Shown here: piece after piece, positions 19,967 to 43,361 of the stretch
Layout of the letters: each line of letters starts with the position of its first letter
Numbering within the stretch: position 1 is the first letter of the stretch
Assembly (NCBI GenBank): GCA_964607485.1
Contig: CAZSKP010000013.1
Coordinates: forward strand, 55,799-119,798
Source: an uncultured bacterium
GTDB lineage: Bacteria > Abyssobacteria > SURF-5
Reading direction: 5' to 3'
DNA: 64,000 nucleotides
Notes under the pieces: model-generated
The model's database searches: none
The model's input: only the letters and a program-made list of their open reading frames with translations
What the model was told of the DNA's origin: nothing
Made by a program: the position numbers and the translations under genes

Positions 19967-20039
19967 GGGGATGTAGCTCAGCTGGGAGAGCGACGCGTTC
20001 GCAACGCGTAGGTCGGCGGTTCGAGCCCGCTCATCTCCA
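19967..20039 (+). tRNA. tRNA-Ala(CGC), CCA not encoded
   Basis: Cloverleaf with GGGGATG/CATCTCC acceptor (G3:U70), ACGCG-TTCGCAA-CGCGT anticodon arm, TTCGA T-loop. Confidence 0.97.
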
Positions 20040-32059: not shown

Positions 32060-32374
32060 GTTGTCGGACGGCCTTTCTATTCCATCTTTCCCGATGAAAC
32101 CATTTGGACACTACTCCCTCGAATAATTGAAACAACGAAAAGGGAGATGCATTTCGCGGTTCAGGGTGTATTGAGCGCTCGATTGGAAGATGAACTGCGA
32201 ACCGCTATTGCAATTCTATCCAATCGCCGGGAAATTGTCAAACGCCCCAAACCGCCTGTGACGCCGCAAAAATGTTGGCGGACGCGCGGTTGGTCACTCG
32301 GATGACGGTATGTTATAATTGATGAAAGTGCACCGGACAAAACCCTTTTTGCGGTGTGTGAGAAACTAAGCCCC

Positions 32375-33736
32375 ATGCAAATCTCCGTTCCAAGAGTGCT
32401 CGTGGTCGATTCTCGCTCGAGGGCGACCGCGGAGCTCATCGCCTTCTTGAAGGACTGCGGCTACGAGGTCCTGTGGGCCGCCGACGGCGAGACCGCGTAC
32501 AACATTCTCGACGACGAGCCCATCGACGTGATGGTGGCCGAGCTTCACGTGCATCGCATAAACGGGATGCGTCTGCTGCAGGTGGCGAGGAAGCGTAACC
32601 CGGAGGTGTGCGTCATCATGATAACCGCCGACGCTCACGTCGAGCTGGCCACCGAGGCGATGCGGGAGGGGGCATACGACTTTCAAACGAAGCCTCTCAA
32701 CCTGAGCAAGCTCAAGGCGGTCATCGAACGGGCCCTCTCGCACCAGAAGCTCGTGCTCGAGATGCACGACCTCCACCAGCGCATCGACGAGCGGTTCGGA
32801 CTGGGAGGCATCATCGGCGGCACCCCTAAGATGGTGCAGGTGTATAACAGGATTCGCGAGATCGCGCCCACCCGCGCGACCGTACTGCTGGTCGGCAAGA
32901 CGGGCACCGGCAAGGCGCTCGCCGCGACCGCCATCCACGCAAACAGCCCCCGGCGCGACGCTCCCTTTGTCAAGCTCAACTGCGCCGCGCTTGCCGAGAG
33001 CATCATCGAGAGCGAACTTTTCGGTCACGAACGCGGCGCGTTCACCGGCGCGCTCAAGATGCGGAAGGGCCGCTTCGAAATCGCCGACGGGGGAACGTTG
33101 TTCTTGGACGAGGTGAGCGAGATCCCACCCTCCACCCAAGTGAAGCTGCTGCGTTTTTTGGAGGAGCGCCAGTTCGAACGCCTCGGCGGCAACGAGACCA
33201 TCGAGGTGGACGTGCGCCTTGTCGCCGCGACGAACCGCGGCCTGAGCGAGCTCGTCGCCGAGGGGAAATTCAGGGAGGACCTGTACTACAGGCTCGCGGT
33301 CGTCCACATCGAGATGCCCGAACTGCGCGAGCGCAAACAGGACATCCCTCTCCTGGTCGAGGCATTCATCGAAGAGTTCAACGAGAGCCACAGCAAATCC
33401 GTCAAGGGGGTGAGCCGTGGGGTGATGGATGCGCTCATGACCCACGACTGGCCTGGCAACGTTCGCGAGCTCCGCAACTGCATCGAGGGAATGGTCGCCT
33501 TCTCGCGTCCCGGCAGCGTGCTCGGCGTGTCGGCCCTGCCGCCGAACCTGCGCGGCCCGAAACCCTCAACCGACGGCTTCCACCTCCACGTCGGCATGAC
33601 GATGGAAGACGTCGAGAAGACCATTATCGAGAAGACCCTCCAATCCACCGGCCACAACAAAGAGAAGACCGCCGAAATCCTCCAGATCGGCCTCCGAACC
33701 CTCTACCGGAAGATTAAGGAGTATCAAATAGATTAG
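32375..33736 (+). CDS. NtrC-family sigma54-dependent activator with an atypical receiver domain
   Basis: REC, AAA+ (GTGK, GAFTGA, FLDEV, FREDLYYRL, WPGNVREL) and Fis HTH. Confidence 0.93.
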   Translation: MQISVPRVLVVDSRSRATAELIAFLKDCGYEVLWAADGETAYNILDDEPIDVMVAELHVHRINGMRLLQVARKRNPEVCVIMITADAHVELATEAMREGAYDFQTKPLNLSKLKAVIERALSHQKLVLEMHDLHQRIDERFGLGGIIGGTPKMVQVYNRIREIAPTRATVLLVGKTGTGKALAATAIHANSPRRDAPFVKLNCAALAESIIESELFGHERGAFTGALKMRKGRFEIADGGTLFLDEVSEIPPSTQVKLLRFLEERQFERLGGNETIEVDVRLVAATNRGLSELVAEGKFREDLYYRLAVVHIEMPELRERKQDIPLLVEAFIEEFNESHSKSVKGVSRGVMDALMTHDWPGNVRELRNCIEGMVAFSRPGSVLGVSALPPNLRGPKPSTDGFHLHVGMTMEDVEKTIIEKTLQSTGHNKEKTAEILQIGLRTLYRKIKEYQID

Positions 33737-33831
33737 CCAAAGTCAGGCAAAACTCTATGCCTTATGCGAAGAGTAATGAACCCATTCCTTGAGCCTTCCA
33801 ACAATAGAAATTGAGGACAATTGGAGCAGTC

Positions 33832-34638
33832 ATGCCAATCAAATGGTTTACAGTCGAACAGCATCAGCAGGTCGTTGAGAATTTGGTCGCCCTTGCTCGG
33901 AGCGTCGACGGCATGCGTTATCACTCCGCCGGTCCAGAATACACGTCACTCATGGTTTGTTTCTTGCTGCACAATCTCTCCGTAGCTAAGGCGTTACTAA
34001 GCCTGCGTGATTCCTTCGGAAACGAGTGGTTCCCGTGTACAGCAGGGTATGTTATAGTTCGATCAATGTTTGAGACTGAGGTGACAGCCCACTACATTTC
34101 AAAGTCTCCCAGGGACCGGTCCCGCCGATACATTGATTTTGGACATATCCTTAGCAAACGAGAAATGGACATTTGCCGGAAACACCGAGAAAGCAGAAGC
34201 CCTCAATGGCGAGAGGTGATGAATTTGATGTGGGATAACGTATGGGCATCAAAGGAAAATGAGATTCATTCGAAGTACAGTGCGGTGCGTTCAACTTTCG
34301 AGACAGTCACAAAGAAGGGCGGCAAACGCGAGTTGCACAATTGGTCAGGGAAGACCTTTCGCCAAATGGCTGTTGAAGTCGATCATGAAGAGGCTTACGA
34401 CGTGTTCTATGCTGAGTTATCATCTTTCACACATGTTGATGTCCGTCTTGCTGACAGATTCTTAAGGATTCATCCAAATGGATTATCTTGGTCACTACGC
34501 TCAAGTGAATCTGATGTTGGCAACGTCTTTCGATATGCTGCCTCTTTTCTGACATGTTTTCTGGAGCTATTGGCTGAACAGTTCAGCGTCTGGAAGAAAG
34601 AAGATGTCCGAAAGTGTTGGGATGTTGAAGCATCCTGA
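33832..34638 (+). CDS. DUF5677-like helical protein, AT-rich
   Basis: VRSMFE...HYI and YAELSSFTH motifs; codon usage visibly AT-shifted. Confidence 0.6.
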   Translation: MPIKWFTVEQHQQVVENLVALARSVDGMRYHSAGPEYTSLMVCFLLHNLSVAKALLSLRDSFGNEWFPCTAGYVIVRSMFETEVTAHYISKSPRDRSRRYIDFGHILSKREMDICRKHRESRSPQWREVMNLMWDNVWASKENEIHSKYSAVRSTFETVTKKGGKRELHNWSGKTFRQMAVEVDHEEAYDVFYAELSSFTHVDVRLADRFLRIHPNGLSWSLRSSESDVGNVFRYAASFLTCFLELLAEQFSVWKKEDVRKCWDVEAS

Positions 34639-34909: not shown

Positions 34910-35125
34910 ATGTATATGGAAAATTGGATCAGACTTATTGCGGGGTGCTTTGTTCTGATAAGTCTGGCGCTTGGTCTGCTGGTGAGCCCGTACTGGTTTA
35001 TCTTCACGGCGTTTGTGGGGCTCAACCTGGCGCAGTCGGCTCTGACCGGATTCTGCCCGATGGAGCTCATCCTCAAGAAATTCGGCGTCCGCGAGAAGAG
35101 TGCTGTCGCCGAGTCAAAAGGTTAA
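34910..35125 (+). CDS. DUF2892/YgaP-like small membrane protein
   Basis: IRLIAG, FVGLNL.QSA.TGFCPM; GGGAGG RBS. Confidence 0.88.
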   Translation: MYMENWIRLIAGCFVLISLALGLLVSPYWFIFTAFVGLNLAQSALTGFCPMELILKKFGVREKSAVAESKG

Positions 35126-35148: not shown

Positions 35149-36525
35149 TCACGTGACGGTTTCGATTGAGGCGCGGGTGACGGCAACCATTCGCTCAAGC
35201 TGGGCAGCGCTGAAGGTGAGGTGCGGCATGAGTATTATCACGTCGCCGAGCGGCCGGATGATGAGCCCCTTCCGCCTGGCCTCCATGATGACCTTGATCC
35301 CAATCTTCTCACCGTAATCGTACGGCTCGCGGGTTTTCTTGTTCTTGACAAGTTCGATGCCGACCATCAGGCCACACTGCCTTATCTCGCCGACGTGCGG
35401 CAGTTCCTTGAGCGGCCGGAGCAATTCTTCGAGCAGCTCCGCCTTCTTGCGTACCTTCTTCAGCGTCTGCTCGCGGTCGAAAAGCTCGAGGTTCGCCACG
35501 CCGGCCGCGCAGCCGAGCGGGTTGCCTGTGTAGGTGTGCCCGTGGAAAAGTGTCCGGGTCTCCTCGTAATCTCCCAAAAATCCCGCGTAGATGTCCTCGG
35601 TCGTCAGTGTCGCAGCGACGGGCAGGTAGCCCCCGCTCAGGCCCTTCGCGACCGCAAGGATGTCGGGCTCGACGCCCTCGCGCTCGCACGCGAACATCGT
35701 TCCCGTCCGCCCCATGCCCACCGCGACTTCGTCGGCGAGCATGAGTATTCCGTGCCTTGTGCAAAGCTCGCGTAAGCGTTTCAGGTAGCCGGGCGGCTGC
35801 ACGATGATTCCGCCCGCCGCGAACACGAGCGGCTCGATCACCAGCGCAGCGACTTCGTCGGCACATTCCTTGAGCGTGCGTTCCACGGGTTCGACGCACG
35901 CCATGCCGCATGTGGTCTCCTCGAGTTCGAGCGGACAGCGGTAGCAATAGGGCGCCGGCACGCGTATCGAGTCCATTAGGAGCGGGCGGTACAGTTGATG
36001 GAAAAGGTCGATGCCGCCCACACCGACGCTGCCGATGGTGTCGCCGTGGTAGGCGTTGTCGAAGCAGATGAACCTGGTGCGCTTCTTGTGGGAGCCGCTC
36101 CGGTGCTGCTGCCAGAACTGGAACGCCATCTTGAGGCCGACCTCGACCGCGGTCGAGCCATTGTCGGAATAGAAGACCCTTGCGAGTCCTTCCGGCGCTC
36201 GCTCGACGAGCATCTTCGCGAGTTTCACCGCCGGCACGTTCGATATGCCCAGCAGGGTCGAGTGCGCGACCATGTTGAGCTGTTGCCTGACGGCGGAGTC
36301 GAGCGCGCGCTTCCTGTGGCCGTGTACCGTCACCCACAGCGAGGAGACGCCGTCGAGGTATCTCCTGCCGCGAACGTCATAGAGGTAGGCCCCTTTCCCG
36401 CGCTCGATTATCAGCGGCACATCGGCCTCATAATCCCGCATTTGGGTGAACGGATGCCAGACGTACCGCCTGTCGTCGAGCTCCAGTTGTTCGGCGTCCT
36501 CTCGCATGCGTTTCTTCTTCGGCAT
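35149..36525 (-). CDS. bioA: DAPA aminotransferase
   Basis: WHPFTQM, SSLW...HGH, YHGDT.G, DEVA.G.GRTG, AKGLSGGYLP; ATG overlaps the bioD TAA. Confidence 0.95.
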   Translation of the reverse strand: MPKKKRMREDAEQLELDDRRYVWHPFTQMRDYEADVPLIIERGKGAYLYDVRGRRYLDGVSSLWVTVHGHRKRALDSAVRQQLNMVAHSTLLGISNVPAVKLAKMLVERAPEGLARVFYSDNGSTAVEVGLKMAFQFWQQHRSGSHKKRTRFICFDNAYHGDTIGSVGVGGIDLFHQLYRPLLMDSIRVPAPYCYRCPLELEETTCGMACVEPVERTLKECADEVAALVIEPLVFAAGGIIVQPPGYLKRLRELCTRHGILMLADEVAVGMGRTGTMFACEREGVEPDILAVAKGLSGGYLPVAATLTTEDIYAGFLGDYEETRTLFHGHTYTGNPLGCAAGVANLELFDREQTLKKVRKKAELLEELLRPLKELPHVGEIRQCGLMVGIELVKNKKTREPYDYGEKIGIKVIMEARRKGLIIRPLGDVIILMPHLTFSAAQLERMVAVTRASIETVT

Positions 36526-37256
36526 TATTGTGACTTCCTCCGTAGACATTTCAGAATTTTCGCTATGTCGATGTTGGCCTCGGTCGCGTCGAGGAGCCCG
36601 TCGTATTTTCTGGCCGGGACCGAAGCGCGCGGCAGGTGAGGCAGTATTCCCAGCAGACGAGCGCCCGAATACCGTTGAAGGATGTCGGGGTTCGTCCGCT
36701 CGGCGAGCGAGGGCCGGAGGGGGTAATTGTTGATGATGATTCCCGCGACATCTATTCCCCTTGCGCGCGCGATTTCGCACGTGAGCAGCGTGTGGTTTAT
36801 CGTGCCCAGTCCCGGCCTCGCGACGACAATGAGTGGAGAAGAAAGCTCCGCTATCAGGTCGAGCATGAAATAATTTCTCTTGATGGGGACGAACAGGCCG
36901 CCCGCGCCCTCGACTATCAGCACGTCGTGCCTGCGGCGAAGCTCTCTGAACGCGCGCGTTATCCTGCGGATGTCGATTCGCGCGCGCTCTTGCCGGGCGG
37001 CGACTTCAGGGGCCAGCGGTTCGCGGAGCATGTAGGGGCAGACAAGCTCACGCTCGTCTTCGCCGCCGCATGCGCCCACGAGGTATTCCACGTCCTCAGA
37101 GATTCGCCTGCCGCGGCGGGTGGAACAGCCGGTGACCGCAGGTTTCATGACGCCGACATCGAGCCCGCGTTTTGCGAGTGCGAGCGCGAGGCCGGCGGCG
37201 ACGAGCGTCTTGCCCACCTCGGTGTCGGTGCCGGTGACGAAGAGGGCCGAGTTCAC
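36525..37256 (-). CDS. bioD: Dethiobiotin synthase
   Basis: FVTGTDTEVGKT, MKP, VEGAGG, LGTINHT. Confidence 0.95.
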   Translation of the reverse strand: MNSALFVTGTDTEVGKTLVAAGLALALAKRGLDVGVMKPAVTGCSTRRGRRISEDVEYLVGACGGEDERELVCPYMLREPLAPEVAARQERARIDIRRITRAFRELRRRHDVLIVEGAGGLFVPIKRNYFMLDLIAELSSPLIVVARPGLGTINHTLLTCEIARARGIDVAGIIINNYPLRPSLAERTNPDILQRYSGARLLGILPHLPRASVPARKYDGLLDATEANIDIAKILKCLRRKSQ

Positions 37257-37266
37257 GCGAGCCTCC

Positions 37267-37890
37267 TCAGCCCTTCATCCTGAGCGCTTCGAGCAGTTCT
37301 TTGGCGCGCGTGGGATTGAACGCGCCGCATTCGCACGGTTTGGCGAGATGATACGCTCCCTGCTCGGGAGTCATCCTTCCGAGCTTCACCTCGTCGATAA
37401 TCTTCTTGATGAGATTGAACGAGACCATGCCGTGTCCGCACATGCTGTTCATTTCCACGAGTTCGCGCGGCGGCAGCCTGTCCTTCCTCCCGAACACGCC
37501 CAGCGACTGTTCGACGCTGTGCCGCTTCAGGCCCGCTTTCTCGCAGCACTCCTTCACTTCCTCGAACAGTCCGCTGACGTTTATCGGCACTCCGAGGTCG
37601 GCCTCTTTCAACTCTGCGATAACCGAGGCGACTGCCTCGACGTTGTCGTAAGTGGCGGTGATGCCTATCTCGTCCTTCATTTCCTCTTCGATGCGGCGCG
37701 CATCGACGCGCCTCATGGCCATGTTCTCGACCTTCGCCATGTTGACAGGCCTGTGCTTCAGGCAGATTTCAGTGAAGCGTCTCATCTTGTCGGGCAACTC
37801 GGGGGAGATGCTCCGCGTCGGAGTCGCGAAGACGACGAAGTCGCGCCTCAGCGCCTCGGCTGTCCCCTTCCTGTGGAGCGTATTCGTCAT
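37267..37890 (-). CDS. Uncharacterised protein with Cys/His metal-ligand motifs (gene Y in the bio operon)
   Basis: 207 aa, MTNTLHR.G, ECC, SMCGHG, CECGAFNP.RA; GGAG RBS, 1-nt gap to the upstream gene. Confidence 0.8.
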   Translation of the reverse strand: MTNTLHRKGTAEALRRDFVVFATPTRSISPELPDKMRRFTEICLKHRPVNMAKVENMAMRRVDARRIEEEMKDEIGITATYDNVEAVASVIAELKEADLGVPINVSGLFEEVKECCEKAGLKRHSVEQSLGVFGRKDRLPPRELVEMNSMCGHGMVSFNLIKKIIDEVKLGRMTPEQGAYHLAKPCECGAFNPTRAKELLEALRMKG

Positions 37891-37891
37891 T

Positions 37892-38698
37892 TCAATCTCC
37901 CATTCTCACCGGACGTCCGAGCCCCAGGTTGGTCTTTCCGTTGGGCGAAGGCGAATAGCCGGCCTCGACGCACACGCGCTCATGCGAGATGCTCCCGTCG
38001 CCCGCGCACCGGCTCGACACTCCGACGCTCACCACCGTGTCGAGTTCGCCCGCGGTTTTCTCGATGGTTTGCAGGACGGCCGGCAGTTCGTTCAACGTTA
38101 CCTTGAGCTCGATTATGGCAGAGAGCACCTTCTCTTTCAGGATATCCTCGCGAATGCAGCCCTTCGCCACGTCGGTCATAAGGACGGTGAGAGGATTTTC
38201 GGGTTCGAACTTTATGTAGTGGGGCGCGAGCGCCCTTGTCATTCTGTCGATGTCTGAAAAGAAGACGCCGGTTCCCGGCCGCCCAAGGTCGATGACGACA
38301 CCAGCCTCGCCCGGTCCGATACGGCCGGTGATGTCGTTCGTCTTTATCTCCTCGGTACCGCGGCCGGCCATGCCCGTGCTGTCGTGCGTGACAGTCGGGT
38401 CGCTGAACGCCTTCCTAAGCGACCGCGGCCACTCGAGCTCGGGCGCCACGAGCGCTCCCGTCGGGCAGGCGTCGGGACGCGCATCGTAGCGCAGGCGAAA
38501 TATCTCGAACACTTTCCTGAGCGCGCGCACGACCGTGGGGTTCAGGCCTTCCGACTCACAGCATCGATAGCAGGTGTTGCACTCGACGCATTCGTCCTCG
38601 TTAACGACGGCGAGTCCGTCCTCGACGCGTATCACGCCCATCGTGCAATAGGGCACGCAGTTGCCGCAGCCCACGCATTTTTCTTTGTCAATTTCCAT
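37892..38698 (-). CDS. 2x[4Fe-4S] ferredoxin-domain protein with an unknown C-terminal domain (gene X in the bio operon)
   Basis: CVGCGNCVPYC, CVECNTC...ACP, then GRGTEEIKTND.TGR and GRPGTG motifs. Confidence 0.85.
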   Translation of the reverse strand: MEIDKEKCVGCGNCVPYCTMGVIRVEDGLAVVNEDECVECNTCYRCCESEGLNPTVVRALRKVFEIFRLRYDARPDACPTGALVAPELEWPRSLRKAFSDPTVTHDSTGMAGRGTEEIKTNDITGRIGPGEAGVVIDLGRPGTGVFFSDIDRMTRALAPHYIKFEPENPLTVLMTDVAKGCIREDILKEKVLSAIIELKVTLNELPAVLQTIEKTAGELDTVVSVGVSSRCAGDGSISHERVCVEAGYSPSPNGKTNLGLGRPVRMGD

Positions 38699-38719: not shown

Positions 38720-39922
38720 TCAGACGACGCCGCACCTCTCGCCGGCGCGCACAAAGGCGTCGAGCGCAAACTCGAGGTCGCCTATCTCATGTTCGGCGGT
38801 GGGAACGACGCGCAGCCTGGACGCTCCTTCGGGCACCGAGGGCGGCCTTATGGCCTGTGCGAACACGCCTTCGTCCAGCAGTGTCTCAGCCATTCGCACG
38901 CATTCACGCGCATGGCCTATTATCACGGGAATGATGCACGTCTCCGACGCGCCTATGTCGAACCCAGCCGATGCGAGTTCCTTCTTCAGAAACTTCGTGT
39001 TGCTCCACAGGCGCTCTCGCCGTTCCGGTTCACGCTCGATGATGCCCACCGCTTCGAGCGCCGCTGCGGCGGAGGCCGGTGGCAACGCCGTCGTGAAGAT
39101 GAAGCTACGGGCACGGTTCACGAGAAGGTCTATCAGTTCGCGCGAGCCCGCGACGAACGCTCCGTAACTTCCCAGTGCCTTGCTCAGCGTGCCCATCTGA
39201 ATATCGACGCGTCCCTCGAGCCCGAAGTGAGAGGCGGTTCCTCTGCCCTCGGGACCGAGCACGCCGGTGGCGTGCGCGTCGTCGACCATCAGGAAGCAGT
39301 CGAACTCCAAAGCGAGCCCCGCGAGTTCGGGGAGCGGCGCGATGTCGCCATCCATGCTGAATACGCCGTCGGTGACGATAAGTCTCCGGCCGCAGGCGAC
39401 GTTGTTGGCGAGCATTCTTCTCAGGGCACTTGCGTTGGCGTGAGGGAAAACTCTCACCGCCGCGCGGCCGAGCCGGCATGCGTCAACGATGCTGGCGTGA
39501 TTGAGCTCGTCGCTGTAAACGACGTCGCCCCGTTGCGCCAGCGAGGAAACGGCGCCTATGTTGGCGAGGTAGCCCGAGCCGAACACAAGCGCAGCCTCGG
39601 TCCCCTTGAGCCGTGCGAGCGCGGCCTCGAGCTCGGCATGTATGGGCAGCGTGCCTGAGACGAGCCGCGATGCTCCCGCTCCCGCTCCGTATCTGTCCAC
39701 GGCCTTCTTCGCGGCGCGCCTGACTGAGGGATGATTTGCGAGTCCGAGATAGTCGTTCGTGCAGAGGAGCAGCGTCTCGCGTCCGTCGATAGTCACGCGG
39801 GGCCCGATGGGGCCCTCGACGAGCTTCGGCTTGCGGGTCAGCCCCAGCGCGTCTATCTCTCTGAGTTCGTTCTCCAGCGCGCTATACTTCCGCGCCGCAG
39901 ATTTTCTTTGTGCCGTGGTCAT
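38720..39922 (-). CDS. bioF: 8-amino-7-oxononanoate synthase
   Basis: NDYLGLA, GAGASRLVSG, LNHASI, DDAHA.G, GTLSKA, IRPPSVP. Confidence 0.95.
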   Translation of the reverse strand: MTTAQRKSAARKYSALENELREIDALGLTRKPKLVEGPIGPRVTIDGRETLLLCTNDYLGLANHPSVRRAAKKAVDRYGAGAGASRLVSGTLPIHAELEAALARLKGTEAALVFGSGYLANIGAVSSLAQRGDVVYSDELNHASIVDACRLGRAAVRVFPHANASALRRMLANNVACGRRLIVTDGVFSMDGDIAPLPELAGLALEFDCFLMVDDAHATGVLGPEGRGTASHFGLEGRVDIQMGTLSKALGSYGAFVAGSRELIDLLVNRARSFIFTTALPPASAAAALEAVGIIEREPERRERLWSNTKFLKKELASAGFDIGASETCIIPVIIGHARECVRMAETLLDEGVFAQAIRPPSVPEGASRLRVVPTAEHEIGDLEFALDAFVRAGERCGVV

Positions 39923-40928
39923 GGTCGGCGTTCAGCGTGCCTCCGGGACGGGCGCGAAGGCCGAGGTCGGCTATCATTTCGAGGTCTTCGGCATAGTCGC
40001 GTCCTGGCGTCGTCAGATAGTTTCCCACCACCGTGCAGTTCGCCCCGGCCACGTACATGAGCGGCTGGAGCGAGCGGAGGTTTCGTTCGCGTCCTCCGCA
40101 TACCCTTATATCTTTGTCCGGCAGCATGAACCGGAACATCGCGATGGTCTTCAGGATATCCAGCGGATGAATGGGCTCGGCATGTTCGAGGGCCGTGCCG
40201 GGAATCGGGTTCAGGAAATTCATCGGGACCGAATCGACGTCCAGCTCCCTCAATGCCAGGGCCATCTCTATTCGCTGCTCCGCCGATTCGCCCATCCCGA
40301 ATATTCCGCCACAGCAGACGTAGAAGCCCGCTTCCTTTGCCGCTCTGACTGTCCGTATTCTGTCCGCGTACGTGTGCGTGGAGCAGATTTTGTCGAAGAA
40401 GCTTTCGGCGGTCTCGATGTTGTGGTGAAGGCTCTGCAGCCCGGCGGCCCTGAGCCTTTCGAGCTGGCTGCGGTCGAGGCTCCCAAGCGAAGCGCATCGG
40501 TCGAGGCCTGTCTCCCGCGCGATGGCGGAGATGGCCGAGCAGATTCTGTCGAGGTCCTCCTCGCGCTCGACACCGGGGCCGCTCGTGACGAAGCACAGCT
40601 TGTTCGCTCCCATCGCCTCGGCCGACCTGGCGCGCTTGAGAATCTCTTCTTCGTCCATGAGGGGATACTCGGGCGCGTCGGTCGCGTGGTGGGCCGATTG
40701 CGCGCAGAACGCGCAGTCTTCCGAACACGCGCCCGATTTGGTGTTCACTATGGCGCACAGGTCCACGTCGCCGCCCTTGAAGTGTCGGCGCACGTCGCTG
40801 GCGGCCGCGAGCAGGTGGAACACGCTTTCGTGGGGCGTCTGGAGCAACTCGCGCGCCTCGTTGCGGCCAAGCCTTTCGCCGTTCATGACGCGTGCGGCAT
40901 AGCTATTGAACAGTTCGCCGTTTTGCAT
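39882..40928 (-). CDS. bioB: Biotin synthase
   Basis: CSEDCAFCAQS radical-SAM motif, HHNIET, GGIFGMGE, SVPMNFL, GNYLTT. Confidence 0.96.
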   Translation of the reverse strand: MQNGELFNSYAARVMNGERLGRNEARELLQTPHESVFHLLAAASDVRRHFKGGDVDLCAIVNTKSGACSEDCAFCAQSAHHATDAPEYPLMDEEEILKRARSAEAMGANKLCFVTSGPGVEREEDLDRICSAISAIARETGLDRCASLGSLDRSQLERLRAAGLQSLHHNIETAESFFDKICSTHTYADRIRTVRAAKEAGFYVCCGGIFGMGESAEQRIEMALALRELDVDSVPMNFLNPIPGTALEHAEPIHPLDILKTIAMFRFMLPDKDIRVCGGRERNLRSLQPLMYVAGANCTVVGNYLTTPGRDYAEDLEMIADLGLRARPGGTLNADHDHGTKKICGAEV

Positions 40929-40973
40929 AGGAGATTTTTCCTTTTTGTCTGGTGGGAGAAATGAACGCTCCAA

Positions 40974-41028
40974 ATGGTATCAGTTGTCGGGGGAATTGTC
41001 AACCACGACCTTGCATTTGGTTGACGTT
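40974..41028 (-). promoter_or_regulatory. bio operon promoter overlapped by a BirA operator
   Basis: AATTGTCAACC-N14-GGTTGACGTT (40994-41028) matches the BirA box; minus strand TTGACA-17 nt-TACCAT with its -35 inside one half-site. Confidence 0.85.
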
Positions 41029-41093: not shown

Positions 41094-43304
41094 CTATTGC
41101 CCGCCGGTGTGACTCCTCTGTTCGACTTCCCGAAGGAGTTCGCGCACGTCCTGCAGGTCGGGATTGAGCTTGAGCGCTTGCCTGAGTTCGCGAGCCGCCA
41201 TCTCGTATCGTCCCTGGCGGGCGTATATCATGCCGAGTTGAACCGACGCGAGGTATTTGTCCGGGTCCAGTTTCTTTGCTTTCCTGAAGCATTCCGCCGC
41301 CTCGTCGATTTGGCCGGTGACGAGGTACATGTTTCCGAGGTTCATGAGATTTGCCGCCGAGCGCGGATTGAGTTTTCGCACGGCCTCGAATTCGGCCAGG
41401 GCAAAGGGATACAGCTTCAGCTTCCAGTACACCGTCCCGAGGCCGGAATGCGCAATCGTCGAATCGGGATAGACCTCCAGCGCCCGTTCGTACAGCAGCC
41501 GCGCGTTGTCGTAGTAGCCCAGCGATTTGTAAAAATCGGCCCGTGTGACCTCGGCGAAAGGAAAGTTCAGCCGGGGAATCCTGTCGGTGAGACGCGAGAG
41601 CGTGCCGTGAGCCCGGGCGAGGTGAGACTCACCGATGTCGGCGGGCAGCGCGGCATCGAATTCCTCCTTCTTGCTCTCGAAGGTGGCGAAGTCGATGCCG
41701 AATGTGTGTATCACCTGCGCGTTCTCCGGGATGTTCCTCACAAACACGACCGAGATCTCATCGAAATAGACCGGTTTCCAGAGGGGAGAATCTATCAGGC
41801 TCCTTATCAAGCTTTCCGGGAGGTATCCGACGTCGTAGTGGAGCACCACATACCGGATATCCATGGCGTCCGCATACCGCTCGAAGAAGCCGGGATCGCT
41901 GCCGATCCGCTTGAAATTCGCCATGAACTCCTCTCCGTAGAGCTCGGTGCGAAGGTCGAAACACACTTTGCGTTCCGGGTAGAAGCGCCAGATCAGGTAT
42001 GCTCCGTCGGTCGGGTCGTTGAACATGTTGCCCGGCAGGTCCATCGCCCCGATGAAGTTCGCAGCCTTGATTGGATAAGACCTCTCCGATATCCCAAAGC
42101 CGAACTGTCTGGGACTCCTATCGTCGATATAGTACCTGTCCGTCGCTATGAGGAACATCATGTATATCATGCCGGCCGCTATCAGGGGGGTGGCGACTAT
42201 CTGCGCCCGGACGAGCAGGCGCATCGCACGCGAAAAGTCGAAGCGCTCCGAGACGTAATCCATAAATCCGCCGACGTTGACCACGGTGACCGGAATGGCG
42301 ATGATTGCAAAGATGTCCAGGTTGCGCCGGGCGTTCAGGGCGAGATACAGGAACGCACCGAACAAGAGCGCGTGAGTCAGGTTCAGCCGTTTCAGATTAA
42401 GAAGGAAACAGAGCGTGCAGAGATAGATCATCCACTTGAAGTAAGTCTGGGAGCGATTCAGGCTGGCCCCGGCCAGCGGGGGCATGTGTTCGGAAACGCT
42501 GGCGCCCACGGCACTCACCCCGCTATGGATTTCTCTGAAAAGAGTCAGCGGGTAGAGCGCCAGGTCGAAGGTATAGGGATTCAGTACGCTTTCGCAGCCC
42601 ATGACCAGGAGGACGAGCGCCAGCCACCACCACCTCTTTCCGCGCAGCCCTCCCTCTTCGTTCCATCGCCACGGCAATTTGAGCTTCCAATCAATGAGGC
42701 CGGCGGAAAGGTAGATGATCGGCACGACCAGCCCGAGCACATAAAGGCCGTGCATGTTCACCCACAGGGGCTGAATGAGAGGCAGGAGGAATATCATTCG
42801 GCCGCCGCGTTTCCTGTGCTTTTCGAGGATGAAGAAGTAAACGGAAAGGAGCAGAAGCGTGATGAGCTGCGGCCGCACAAGGAACCGGTCGCTCGCCATC
42901 ACGATCGCGGCGATCATGAGCACGGGCGTTATGACATATTTCTTCTTATCATATCCGATGAAATACACCGTCGAGAATGTGGCCAGCAGGATGCCCGCCA
43001 TCAGCAGCGTCAGGCCGGTGAGTCCGAGTAGTCTGTAGGAAATATAAAGAATCAATTGGAACAGCCACTGTGAATCGATGTATTTCTTGCCGGGAATCGT
43101 GAACGAGTACGTGTCAACCCGGGGCACTCGATGCGTTTCGTAGATGTATTGTCCGTTCTTCAGCAGCCAGCCGAGGTCGCGATTCTCGATTTTGTGAATG
43201 GAGAAAAAGAGCACGAGCACGAGGGTGAGACAAAAGAGGATTATTCGCGAGACGCTGTCAAGGCGGTCCGTCGGGCCGCATATGTGTGAGGAATTATCCT
43301 TCAT
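41094..43304 (-). CDS. GT-C-like polytopic membrane protein with C-terminal TPRs
   Basis: DLGW.LK.G.YI, RPQL, WVNMHG motifs, many TMs, C-terminal TPRs; start uncertain. Confidence 0.75.
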   Translation of the reverse strand: MKDNSSHICGPTDRLDSVSRIILFCLTLVLVLFFSIHKIENRDLGWLLKNGQYIYETHRVPRVDTYSFTIPGKKYIDSQWLFQLILYISYRLLGLTGLTLLMAGILLATFSTVYFIGYDKKKYVITPVLMIAAIVMASDRFLVRPQLITLLLLSVYFFILEKHRKRGGRMIFLLPLIQPLWVNMHGLYVLGLVVPIIYLSAGLIDWKLKLPWRWNEEGGLRGKRWWWLALVLLVMGCESVLNPYTFDLALYPLTLFREIHSGVSAVGASVSEHMPPLAGASLNRSQTYFKWMIYLCTLCFLLNLKRLNLTHALLFGAFLYLALNARRNLDIFAIIAIPVTVVNVGGFMDYVSERFDFSRAMRLLVRAQIVATPLIAAGMIYMMFLIATDRYYIDDRSPRQFGFGISERSYPIKAANFIGAMDLPGNMFNDPTDGAYLIWRFYPERKVCFDLRTELYGEEFMANFKRIGSDPGFFERYADAMDIRYVVLHYDVGYLPESLIRSLIDSPLWKPVYFDEISVVFVRNIPENAQVIHTFGIDFATFESKKEEFDAALPADIGESHLARAHGTLSRLTDRIPRLNFPFAEVTRADFYKSLGYYDNARLLYERALEVYPDSTIAHSGLGTVYWKLKLYPFALAEFEAVRKLNPRSAANLMNLGNMYLVTGQIDEAAECFRKAKKLDPDKYLASVQLGMIYARQGRYEMAARELRQALKLNPDLQDVRELLREVEQRSHTGGQ

Positions 43305-43361
43305 GCTTCTCGCTATGGGATCTCTATCTATCGTCCCAAATCTCGATGGCTGGAGAGCCAA

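Follow-up and report, generated by a model that had tools for sequence, protein, structure and literature searches.

A paired iron-sulfur protein family of anaerobes with a candidate role in the biotin operon of an uncultured Abyssobacteria bacterium

What are two uncharacterized genes doing in the middle of the biotin operon of an anaerobic bacterium in which none of the searched routes to pimelate was found? This question is raised by a stretch of 64,000 nucleotides (hereafter the window; GenBank assembly GCA_964607485.1, contig CAZSKP010000013.1, positions 55,799 to 119,798) from an uncultured sediment bacterium of the Abyssobacteria lineage SURF-5, whose assembly (hereafter G000) comprises 4,698,057 bases and is 97.5% complete. 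The two genes, which we call X and Y (together XY), lie between bioF and bioD. An initial annotation, made from the DNA letters alone, proposed that they encode a heterodimeric Fe-S enzyme serving either a new anaerobic route to a pimeloyl-thioester or the reduction and sulfur reloading of biotin synthase (BioB). Our analysis points to an Fe-S redox enzyme that is built as a heterodimer and linked to the metabolism of carboxylates, a reading to which we give a probability of about 0.7. The further proposal that XY supplies the pimelate or pimeloyl-thioester precursor step for BioF in the lineage of the window is more tentative, at about 0.3.

The operon consists of six genes, all on the minus strand, which follow a BirA box in the order bioB, bioF, X, Y, bioD, and bioA. 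The four bio genes were recognized with equivalog models: bioB (biotin synthase, 39882..40973; TIGR00433, 413 bits versus a cut-off of 225), whose true start is likely the ATG at 40931; bioF (8-amino-7-oxononanoate synthase, 38720..39922; TIGR00858, 476 bits versus 426); bioD (dethiobiotin synthase, 36525..37256; TIGR00347, 180 bits versus 83); and bioA (adenosylmethionine-8-amino-7-oxononanoate transaminase, about 35149..36525; TIGR00508, 527 bits versus 405), for which the start is ambiguous between ATG codons at 36549, 36525, and 36504. Between them lie X (37892..38698) and Y (37267..37890). The coordinates of the open reading frames (ORFs) leave gaps of 21 nucleotides between bioF and X, 1 between X and Y, and 10 between Y and bioD, so that both the gene order and the spacing given by the initial annotation were confirmed. 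Upstream of bioB is a predicted BirA-type operator, GTCAACC-N14-GGTTGAC (40998..41025, minus strand, on which it reads acGTCAACC-N14-GGTTGACaa). The same palindrome is kept upstream of bioB in all seven loci of the window's family that were examined, and a whole-genome scan of G000 found it only once, which bears out the BirA box noted previously. Its right half contains the TTGACA −35 hexamer of a sigma-70-like promoter, the strongest candidate in this region, which is predicted by consensus match only (TTGACA, a 17-nucleotide spacer, and TG-TACCAT, with 10 of 12 consensus matches; 40974..41002, minus strand). The genome also encodes a BirA protein of 323 amino acids with a DNA-binding domain (HTH_11, BPL, and BPL_C domains; gene on contig C38), and the assignment of the operator is a prediction from the palindrome together with this protein. 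Promoter- and terminator-like sites within the operon were no more common than in shuffled sequence, and an Rfam scan detected no riboswitch in the window. Because of the tight spacing and the BirA operator, X and Y are probably part of one biotin-repressed transcript with the bio genes.

The initial annotation had also pointed to the absence of bioC, bioH, bioW, and bioI from the window, and we likewise found no pimelate-supply gene there. This absence extended to the whole of G000 when searched with models: the best scores for BioC and BioH were 68.9 bits (cut-off 185) and 94 bits (cut-off 207), and BioW, BioG, and P450 (BioI) had no match. Nor did BioC or BioW, which had been named in advance as evidence against the proposal if encoded elsewhere in the genome, score over the cut-off in any of the ten genomes of the window's family. 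X and Y themselves did not match the models of known pimelate-supply enzymes. These negatives cover BioC, BioH, BioG, BioW, and P450; BioZ, BioJ, BioK, BioV, and BioE were not searched.

The product of X (268 amino acids) combines an N-terminal 2x[4Fe-4S] domain with a C-terminal domain that matches no known family, as judged from Fer4 models, the alignment, and a structure model. Residues 1-80 were matched by PF00037 Fer4 (31.5 bits, cut-off 21.1) and PF12837 Fer4_6 (30.9 bits, cut-off 25), and the dicluster models Fer4_21, Fer4_9, and Fer4_7 scored under their own cut-offs. Two sets of cysteines (C8, C11, C14, and C18; C37, C40, C43, and C78, the last followed by P79) are invariant in all 22 aligned homologues, and the second motif is interrupted by some 31 extra residues ahead of the eighth cysteine, in agreement with the insert of about 30 residues described earlier. 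The only matches of X among sequences in the PDB were polyferredoxin subunits, and its N-terminal domain is a typical ferredoxin-family domain. The remaining 190 residues had no Pfam or NCBIfam match. In the 22-homologue alignment they hold the near-invariant motifs FSDP..H, GRGTEEIKTND.TGR, GRPG.G, EKVLSAIIE, and NGKTNLGLGRP; the motifs GRGTEEIKTND and GRPGTG singled out by the initial annotation lie within highly conserved stretches. In the AlphaFold model of X (predicted local distance difference test score, pLDDT, 74) the C-terminal domain adopts a generic beta-alpha-beta-beta-alpha-beta fold, and comparison of the model with solved folds returned generic ferredoxin-like or ACT-like folds throughout (best VIA-align Z 5.9). 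The fold searches for both X and Y used whole-chain models instead of separately folded domains.

The product of Y (207 amino acids) matched no known family in library scans, with no Pfam or NCBIfam match at E <= 0.01 and a single match of its profile to PDB sequences at E 0.92. The ligand-like motifs noted at the start were borne out: TLHR (residues 4-7), CGHG (151-154), and C-x-C-G-x-FN (186-192) do not vary among the 23 sequences compared, and neither do the N-terminus MTNTLHR-G and the cysteines C116, C151, C186, and C188. The cysteines are arranged as CC-x34-C-x34-CxC. Among 15 distant members the N-terminus reads M-T-H-T-L-H-R and three cysteine columns, those of CGH and CxC, remain invariant. 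In all, Y has three to five conserved cysteines. The AlphaFold model of Y (pLDDT 86) consists of an N-terminal ferredoxin-like alpha/beta domain and a helical C-terminal part that carries CC, CGHG, and CxC. Against solved folds it reached E 0.086 at best with Foldseek and Z 4.2 at best with VIA-align. Low-scoring matches in the fold searches with Y and X, among them the thiamine-salvage protein TM0486 (Z 4.2) and a formiminotransferase domain (Z 5.1 and 3.5), were given no weight. Matches of X and Y in the ESM Atlas were limited to unnamed clusters of the same family, and a profile-profile comparison of Y with X did not detect a relationship of their alpha/beta domains (probability 1.6%). For Y and the C-terminal domain of X, the Pfam, NCBIfam, and PDB-sequence searches thus gave no convincing match and no solved fold stood out; the two appear to represent an undescribed protein family, and our literature searches found no paper describing the XY gene pair.

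To place the pair in a wider context, 81 loci were fetched with the Y profile and 79 further loci with a profile of the distant Y members, for a total of 160. X was directly upstream of Y in every locus of the first set and in 67 of the 79 loci of the second, the 12 exceptions being contig edges, one reversed order, and Dehalococcoidia loci in which X was not detected. The representative library also contained fusions in both orders, X-Y (P0381) and Y-X (P0358 and P0365), as well as a fusion of Y with a Fer4_11 polyferredoxin (P0252). Because of the strict adjacency and the X-Y and Y-X fusions, it is very likely that XY forms a heterodimer. Its redox nature is suggested by the eight invariant cysteines of X, the invariant cysteines of Y, and the Pyr_redox_2 and Fer4_11 genes among its neighbours (see below). 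Adjacency, fusions, and cysteines favour the heterodimeric Fe-S enzyme proposed by the initial annotation.

The family is large: Y falls into 2,741 clusters at 90% identity, and into 795 at 50% identity with E <= 0.001. In a collection of 185,579 species, each represented by one genome, XY was found in 263 stretches with a first set of patterns and in at least 560 with a looser one. Its carriers are anaerobes, distributed among the window's family (labelled Abyssobacteria, Hydrogenedentota, or Poribacteria in genome records), Thermodesulfobacteriota (many of them Syntrophales), Chloroflexota, Bacillota, Nitrospirota, NC10, and Bathyarchaeia. A few of the carriers are isolates, among them Desulfosporosinus lacus DSM 15449, a Halanaerobium sp., and a Moorellaceae isolate; since cultured carriers exist, the family is open to genetics. 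In a quick tree of Y, computed with approximate likelihood-ratio (SH-aLRT) support only and rooted only at the midpoint, the Bathyarchaeia sequences (loci L095-L120) formed a single clade (SH-aLRT 99). This clade nests among Thermodesulfobacteriota, which suggests a transfer of XY from bacteria into Bathyarchaeia.

The gene neighbourhoods of XY bear on its substrates. Neighbours were collected by tblastn anchoring and crude clustering of six-frame ORFs, representatives of which were scanned against Pfam, and the resulting counts are inflated by related genomes. With this caveat, the most frequent neighbours in the first set of 81 loci were TctC (11), GntR/FCD regulators (10), Pyr_redox_2 (10), Fer4_11 (9), the prismane family (8), the metallo-beta-lactamase fold (6), and an FAD-oxidase fused to a CCG domain (6), followed by ThiM (5), ThiE (5), TctA (5), the penicillin-amidase family (4), and zinc-dependent alcohol dehydrogenases (Zn-ADH, 4). 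Single cases in this set included CoA-transferases, enoyl-CoA hydratase, thiolase, the isocitrate-dehydrogenase family, and MOFRL, all of which occur as direct neighbours of XY, together with SDR, LarA, and PrpR-type activators. The second set of 79 loci was dominated by transporters, with TctA (17), TctC (16), TRAP DctP (9), TRAP DctM (9), and TctB (7), and also contained LarA-like proteins (8), Zn-ADH (8), Fer4_11 (8), AOR (7), Pyr_redox_2 (6), parts of 2-oxoacid:ferredoxin oxidoreductases (5-6), GlcD-like proteins (5), SDR (5), and sCache sensor kinases (5). Despite the inflation, these contexts share a consistent theme, in which small carboxylic acids are taken up and converted with the help of electron-transfer partners. 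In the tree of Y, the biotin, thiamine, metallo-beta-lactamase, TctC, and FAD-oxidase/CCG contexts each formed a separate clade, and one Syntrophales metagenome-assembled genome (MAG) held three copies of XY in three contexts. This is the pattern of a substrate-diversified enzyme family, and in Thermodesulfobacteriota, Chloroflexota, Bacillota, and Bathyarchaeia XY seems to take part commonly in the metabolism of organic acids. Overall, the contexts speak more for a substrate among the small carboxylates than for a function purely as a BioB reductase.

Two known groups of enzymes resemble XY in these respects. LutABC and GlcDEF are multi-cluster Fe-S oxidoreductases of small hydroxy-carboxylates that are encoded beside carboxylate transporters and GntR/FCD regulators. 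XY shares the carboxylate-transporter and GntR/FCD neighbours, and in several loci it directly adjoins FAD-oxidase and CCG genes. However, X lacks DUF3390 or a LutB-type extension, and Y has no match to CCG (PF02754), LUD, or any other Pfam family. The cysteine spacing of Y loosely recalls the CCG signature, CX31-39CCX35-36CXXC, but the order of the cysteines differs, and Pfam recognized no CCG-domain or HdrB-type protein in Y at E <= 0.01. The second group consists of two-subunit [4Fe-4S] hydro-lyases acting on hydroxy-dicarboxylates, such as the alpha and beta subunits of L-serine dehydratase, class I fumarase, and the alpha and beta subunits of tartrate dehydratase. Here the likeness lies in the Fe-S clusters, in the subunit sizes (about 270 and 200 amino acids), and in the genes of the isocitrate/tartrate-dehydrogenase family and of MOFRL (glycerate kinase type) that adjoin XY. 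In contrast, neither X nor Y matched the Pfam and NCBIfam models of these enzymes (SDH_alpha/beta, Fumerase/Fumerase_C, and the aconitase family) at E <= 0.01. Moreover, X possesses a 2x[4Fe-4S] electron-transfer domain, which these hydro-lyases are not known to contain.

On this basis a working mechanism can be sketched. Ferredoxin, or a partner of the Fer4_11 or NAD(P)H-oxidoreductase type, would donate electrons to the pair of [4Fe-4S] clusters in X, and these would be passed to a further cluster on Y, putatively held by the three cysteines (CGH ... CxC) that are invariant across the superfamily. Because only three cysteines are invariant at that breadth, the cluster on Y may leave an iron site open for the substrate, which is a feature of Fe-S reductive dehydroxylases and hydro-lyases. 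It would adjoin a pocket made by both small alpha/beta domains, which are of a ligand-binding type, together with the invariant N-terminus of Y, and at this pocket a small carboxylic acid or thioester could be reduced, or reductively dehydroxylated or dehydrated. Paralogous XY pairs would each be wired to a different carboxylate pathway, and in the window's family one copy would have settled in the slot that separates bioF from bioD, under control of the BirA operator. There, XY would carry out a single reduction by which the dicarboxylate precursor for BioF (pimelate or pimeloyl-thioester) is formed or conditioned; in a possible version, general metabolism supplies a C7 dicarboxyl-thioester of the hydroxy-, oxo-, or enoyl type, which is reduced to pimeloyl-thioester. 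In its most far-reaching form, XY would be the catalytic core of an oxygen-independent, ferredoxin-driven pimelate route and would represent a new Fe-S superfamily, with paralogs that act by the same chemistry on further carboxylates in Bathyarchaeia and anaerobic bacteria, an extension that we regard as doubtful.

None of the searched precursor routes was found in G000, and the pimelate proposal has a precedent. In Desulfovibrio vulgaris, the nitroreductase-like FMN/[4Fe-4S] protein DVU1220 is needed for biotin synthesis and has been suggested to be a missing enoyl reductase, and nitroreductase-like genes lie inside the bio clusters of Syntrophobacter and Desulfobacter (PMC10102598). Like XY, DVU1220 is an Fe-S redox protein tied to biotin in anaerobes without bioC and bioH, with a suggested reductive step leading to pimeloyl-thioester (PMC10102598). 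Unlike DVU1220, XY has two subunits and no recognizable flavin site, and neither X nor Y matches a nitroreductase or flavin domain. Moreover, the Desulfovibrio bio cluster holds dedicated ACP, KAS, reductase, and dehydratase genes (PMC10102598), which the operon in the window lacks. Accessory genes in bio clusters are thus already known (the FAB-like insert of Desulfovibrio, the nitroreductase-like genes, and the BioB-associated protein BsaP), and what is new here is the undescribed protein family.

A role of XY in biotin synthesis is plausible, and several observations weigh against it. Bio genes were found within 8-10 kb of XY in only four of the 160 loci (4 of 81 and none of 79), and all four (G001, G004, G005, and G008) belong to the window's family. 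The initial annotation had named a near absence of bio linkage among the homologues as a ground for rejection; outside this one family, near absence is what we found. Linkage confined to one family may reflect a single rearrangement, and a BioA tree of seven family genomes, in which none of the four inner branches was supported, did not separate single from repeated insertion. Among five XY carriers of other phyla, three lacked a bioD over the cut-off (a Bathyarchaeota chromosome of 2.3 Mb, the Moorellaceae isolate, and a Syntrophaceae MAG). Within the family, G003 and G006 hold an 80%-identical XY away from bio genes and without a BirA box, with a contiguous bioB-bioF-bioD-bioA devoid of insert in G003 and a bioD-bioA pair in G006. 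Furthermore, G007 (97% complete) and G009 (94%) have bio operons without insert (contiguous bioBFDA and bioB-bioF-bioD, respectively) and no detectable XY ortholog, carrying only a paralogous pair of about 35% identity, X2Y2. Therefore close relatives can evidently dispense with XY in making biotin, unless the X2Y2 paralog substitutes for it. To this must be added that two small proteins cannot build a C7 chain, that no thioester-forming enzyme was found in the bio operon, that the searches of G000 left out BioZ and the FAB-like route of the Desulfovibrio type, and that the neighbour counts carry the inflation and the crude clustering described above.

These points would fit a simpler history in which XY serves the catabolism of organic acids, has nothing to do with biotin, and was placed in the bio operon by one rearrangement in an ancestor of several genera and kept because the operon stayed intact. 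The restriction of the linkage to one family (four of 160 loci plus the window), the unrelated contexts of the ortholog in G003 and G006, its non-detection in G007 and G009 despite complete-looking bio operons, the three of five tested genomes that hold XY without bioD, and the family-wide context of carboxylate uptake and catabolism are all in its favour, and we regard such a history as about as probable as the pimelate proposal. Against it stands, first, the regulatory position of XY in G000, where its single copy lies behind the BirA-box promoter and the gaps of 21 and 1 nucleotides leave no room for a promoter of its own; a catabolic pair without a link to biotin, if made only when biotin is scarce, should in time degenerate or leave the operon. 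Second, the arrangement has been conserved. An XY ortholog (over 300 bits) was found in seven of the ten family genomes, and in five of them, representing four genera (G000, G001, G004, G005, and G008), it is embedded among the bio genes, although the surrounding synteny is otherwise shuffled. Across these bio-embedded genomes identities were 73-83% for X and 77-83% for Y, versus 61-71% for BioD and 68-77% for BioF, so that X and Y are at least as conserved as BioD and BioF. The neighbours of the unlinked XY of G006 have their orthologs on four different contigs of G000 (Nramp had no match), and therefore no ancestral empty site could be defined.

The other function considered at the outset was that XY helps BioB, by feeding low-potential electrons to an anaerobe-type enzyme or by reloading its sulfide or auxiliary cluster. 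The BioB of the window is indeed nearest to Type II (4Fe-5S) enzymes, with 326 bits to 8VDW and 247 bits to 8VCW versus 193 bits to the Escherichia coli enzyme 1R30. The Type II motif has been defined as Ser at the position of E. coli C97 and Cys at that of S43 (PMC10813225). Since the window's BioB has Cys at both diagnostic positions (as Type II at the S43 equivalent and as Type I at the C97 equivalent), it fits neither published motif. A missing factor for Type II BioB, either a sulfide supplier or an electron-transfer protein, has been sought by genome-neighbourhood and co-transfer analysis and, according to the same study, was not found (PMC10813225). X with its ferredoxin-type electron carrier domain, and the fusion of Y to a polyferredoxin in P0252, would suit such a factor. 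Auxiliary proteins for BioB are, in addition, known from mycobacteria (PMC11099021). A comparable case is BsaP, which likewise is an accessory protein for a bio-pathway step encoded with or near bio genes; however, BsaP reportedly accompanies Type I BioB in aerobic actinobacteria (PMC11099021), whereas bio genes are absent from most of the genomes and loci in which XY occurs. With only 263 (or, with the looser patterns, at least 560) stretches among 185,579 species, XY cannot be a general helper of Type II BioB. Among the annotated neighbours of XY a radical-SAM gene occurred only once (L068), with transporters and acid dehydrogenases dominating, and in G007 and G009 a bio operon of this type exists although XY orthologs are missing. 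The strongly conserved motifs that contain no cysteine also argue for a bound substrate over simple electron transfer. We consider the support of BioB an unlikely function of XY, compared with the reductive supply of the precursor to BioF.

Some XY loci point to other vitamins. In Syntrophales-type genomes X-Y-thiM-thiE units are found, in which thiM lies 28-91 nucleotides 3' of Y and is followed by thiE (L015, L059, L068, and L091); both genes are also near XY in a fifth locus (L070), and the thi-linked Y sequences form one clade. PdxS/PdxT/RibD genes lie downstream of XY in L093 and PdxA upstream in L087. Such attachments to vitamin operons, with bio in the window as a further instance, could mean that XY clears away some reactive compound formed on the side in cofactor pathways, or that it acts as a redox or ligand sensor, and at low Z both non-Fer4 domains do resemble ACT-like folds that bind small ligands. 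Nevertheless, those fold matches are generic and stay below Z 6, only a minority of the 81 loci have a vitamin context (bio 4, thi 5, and pdx 2), Rfam detected no TPP (thiamine pyrophosphate) riboswitch in the four thiM-linked loci searched, and neither Pfam nor NCBIfam revealed a DNA-binding or signalling domain in X or Y. Repair or sensing thus seems very unlikely, and an enzyme acting on carboxylates continues to be the preferred reading.

These results bear on the origin of pimelate in strict anaerobes without BioC/BioH, BioW, BioI, or BioZ, and on the factor that enables the turnover of anaerobe-type BioB (PMC10813225). The operon of the window is a compact, clonable test case, with six genes, one operator, and only two genes of unassigned function between bioF and bioD. 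More generally, Y and the C-terminal domain of X would define a large family that has neither a Pfam or NCBIfam model nor a solved relative.

Other loci revealed further arrangements of XY. The second pair, X2Y2, about 35% identical to XY, lies 2-8 kb from XY in eight loci of Thermodesulfobacteriota (L058, L060, L062, L065, L086, L087, L092, and L096). In several of these loci X2Y2 shares a block with Pyr_redox_2, a Fer4_11 ferredoxin, a prismane/CODH-family protein, a GntR/FCD regulator, and TctC. In the window's family, X2Y2 is present elsewhere in most genomes, but not in G000. In L018 (5522-7252), XY is followed by a UGSC-family protein of 97 amino acids and a protein of 465 amino acids without Pfam match, and around this block lie genes for two family-III CoA-transferases, an enoyl-CoA hydratase, a GntR regulator, and a binding protein of the TRAP type; it may represent a larger reductase cluster.

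Within the window, the genes flanking the bio operon appear unrelated to biotin. Downstream of bioA and on the plus strand, these are a YgaP-like membrane protein of 71 amino acids (34910..35125), a DUF5677 protein (33811..34638), and an ORF resembling a response regulator or sigma-54 activator, judged from its translation alone (32354..33736). On the other side, a membrane protein of 755 amino acids with TPR repeats at its C-terminus is encoded on the minus strand (41094..43361). A tRNA gene is located elsewhere in the window (19967..20039, plus strand). Outside the window, contig C4 of G000 (about 99812-103584) encodes another alpha-oxoamine synthase of the BioF/Kbl kind, which shares 38% identity with BioF and is adjoined by an open frame of 1298 amino acids containing an alpha/beta-hydrolase-like stretch.

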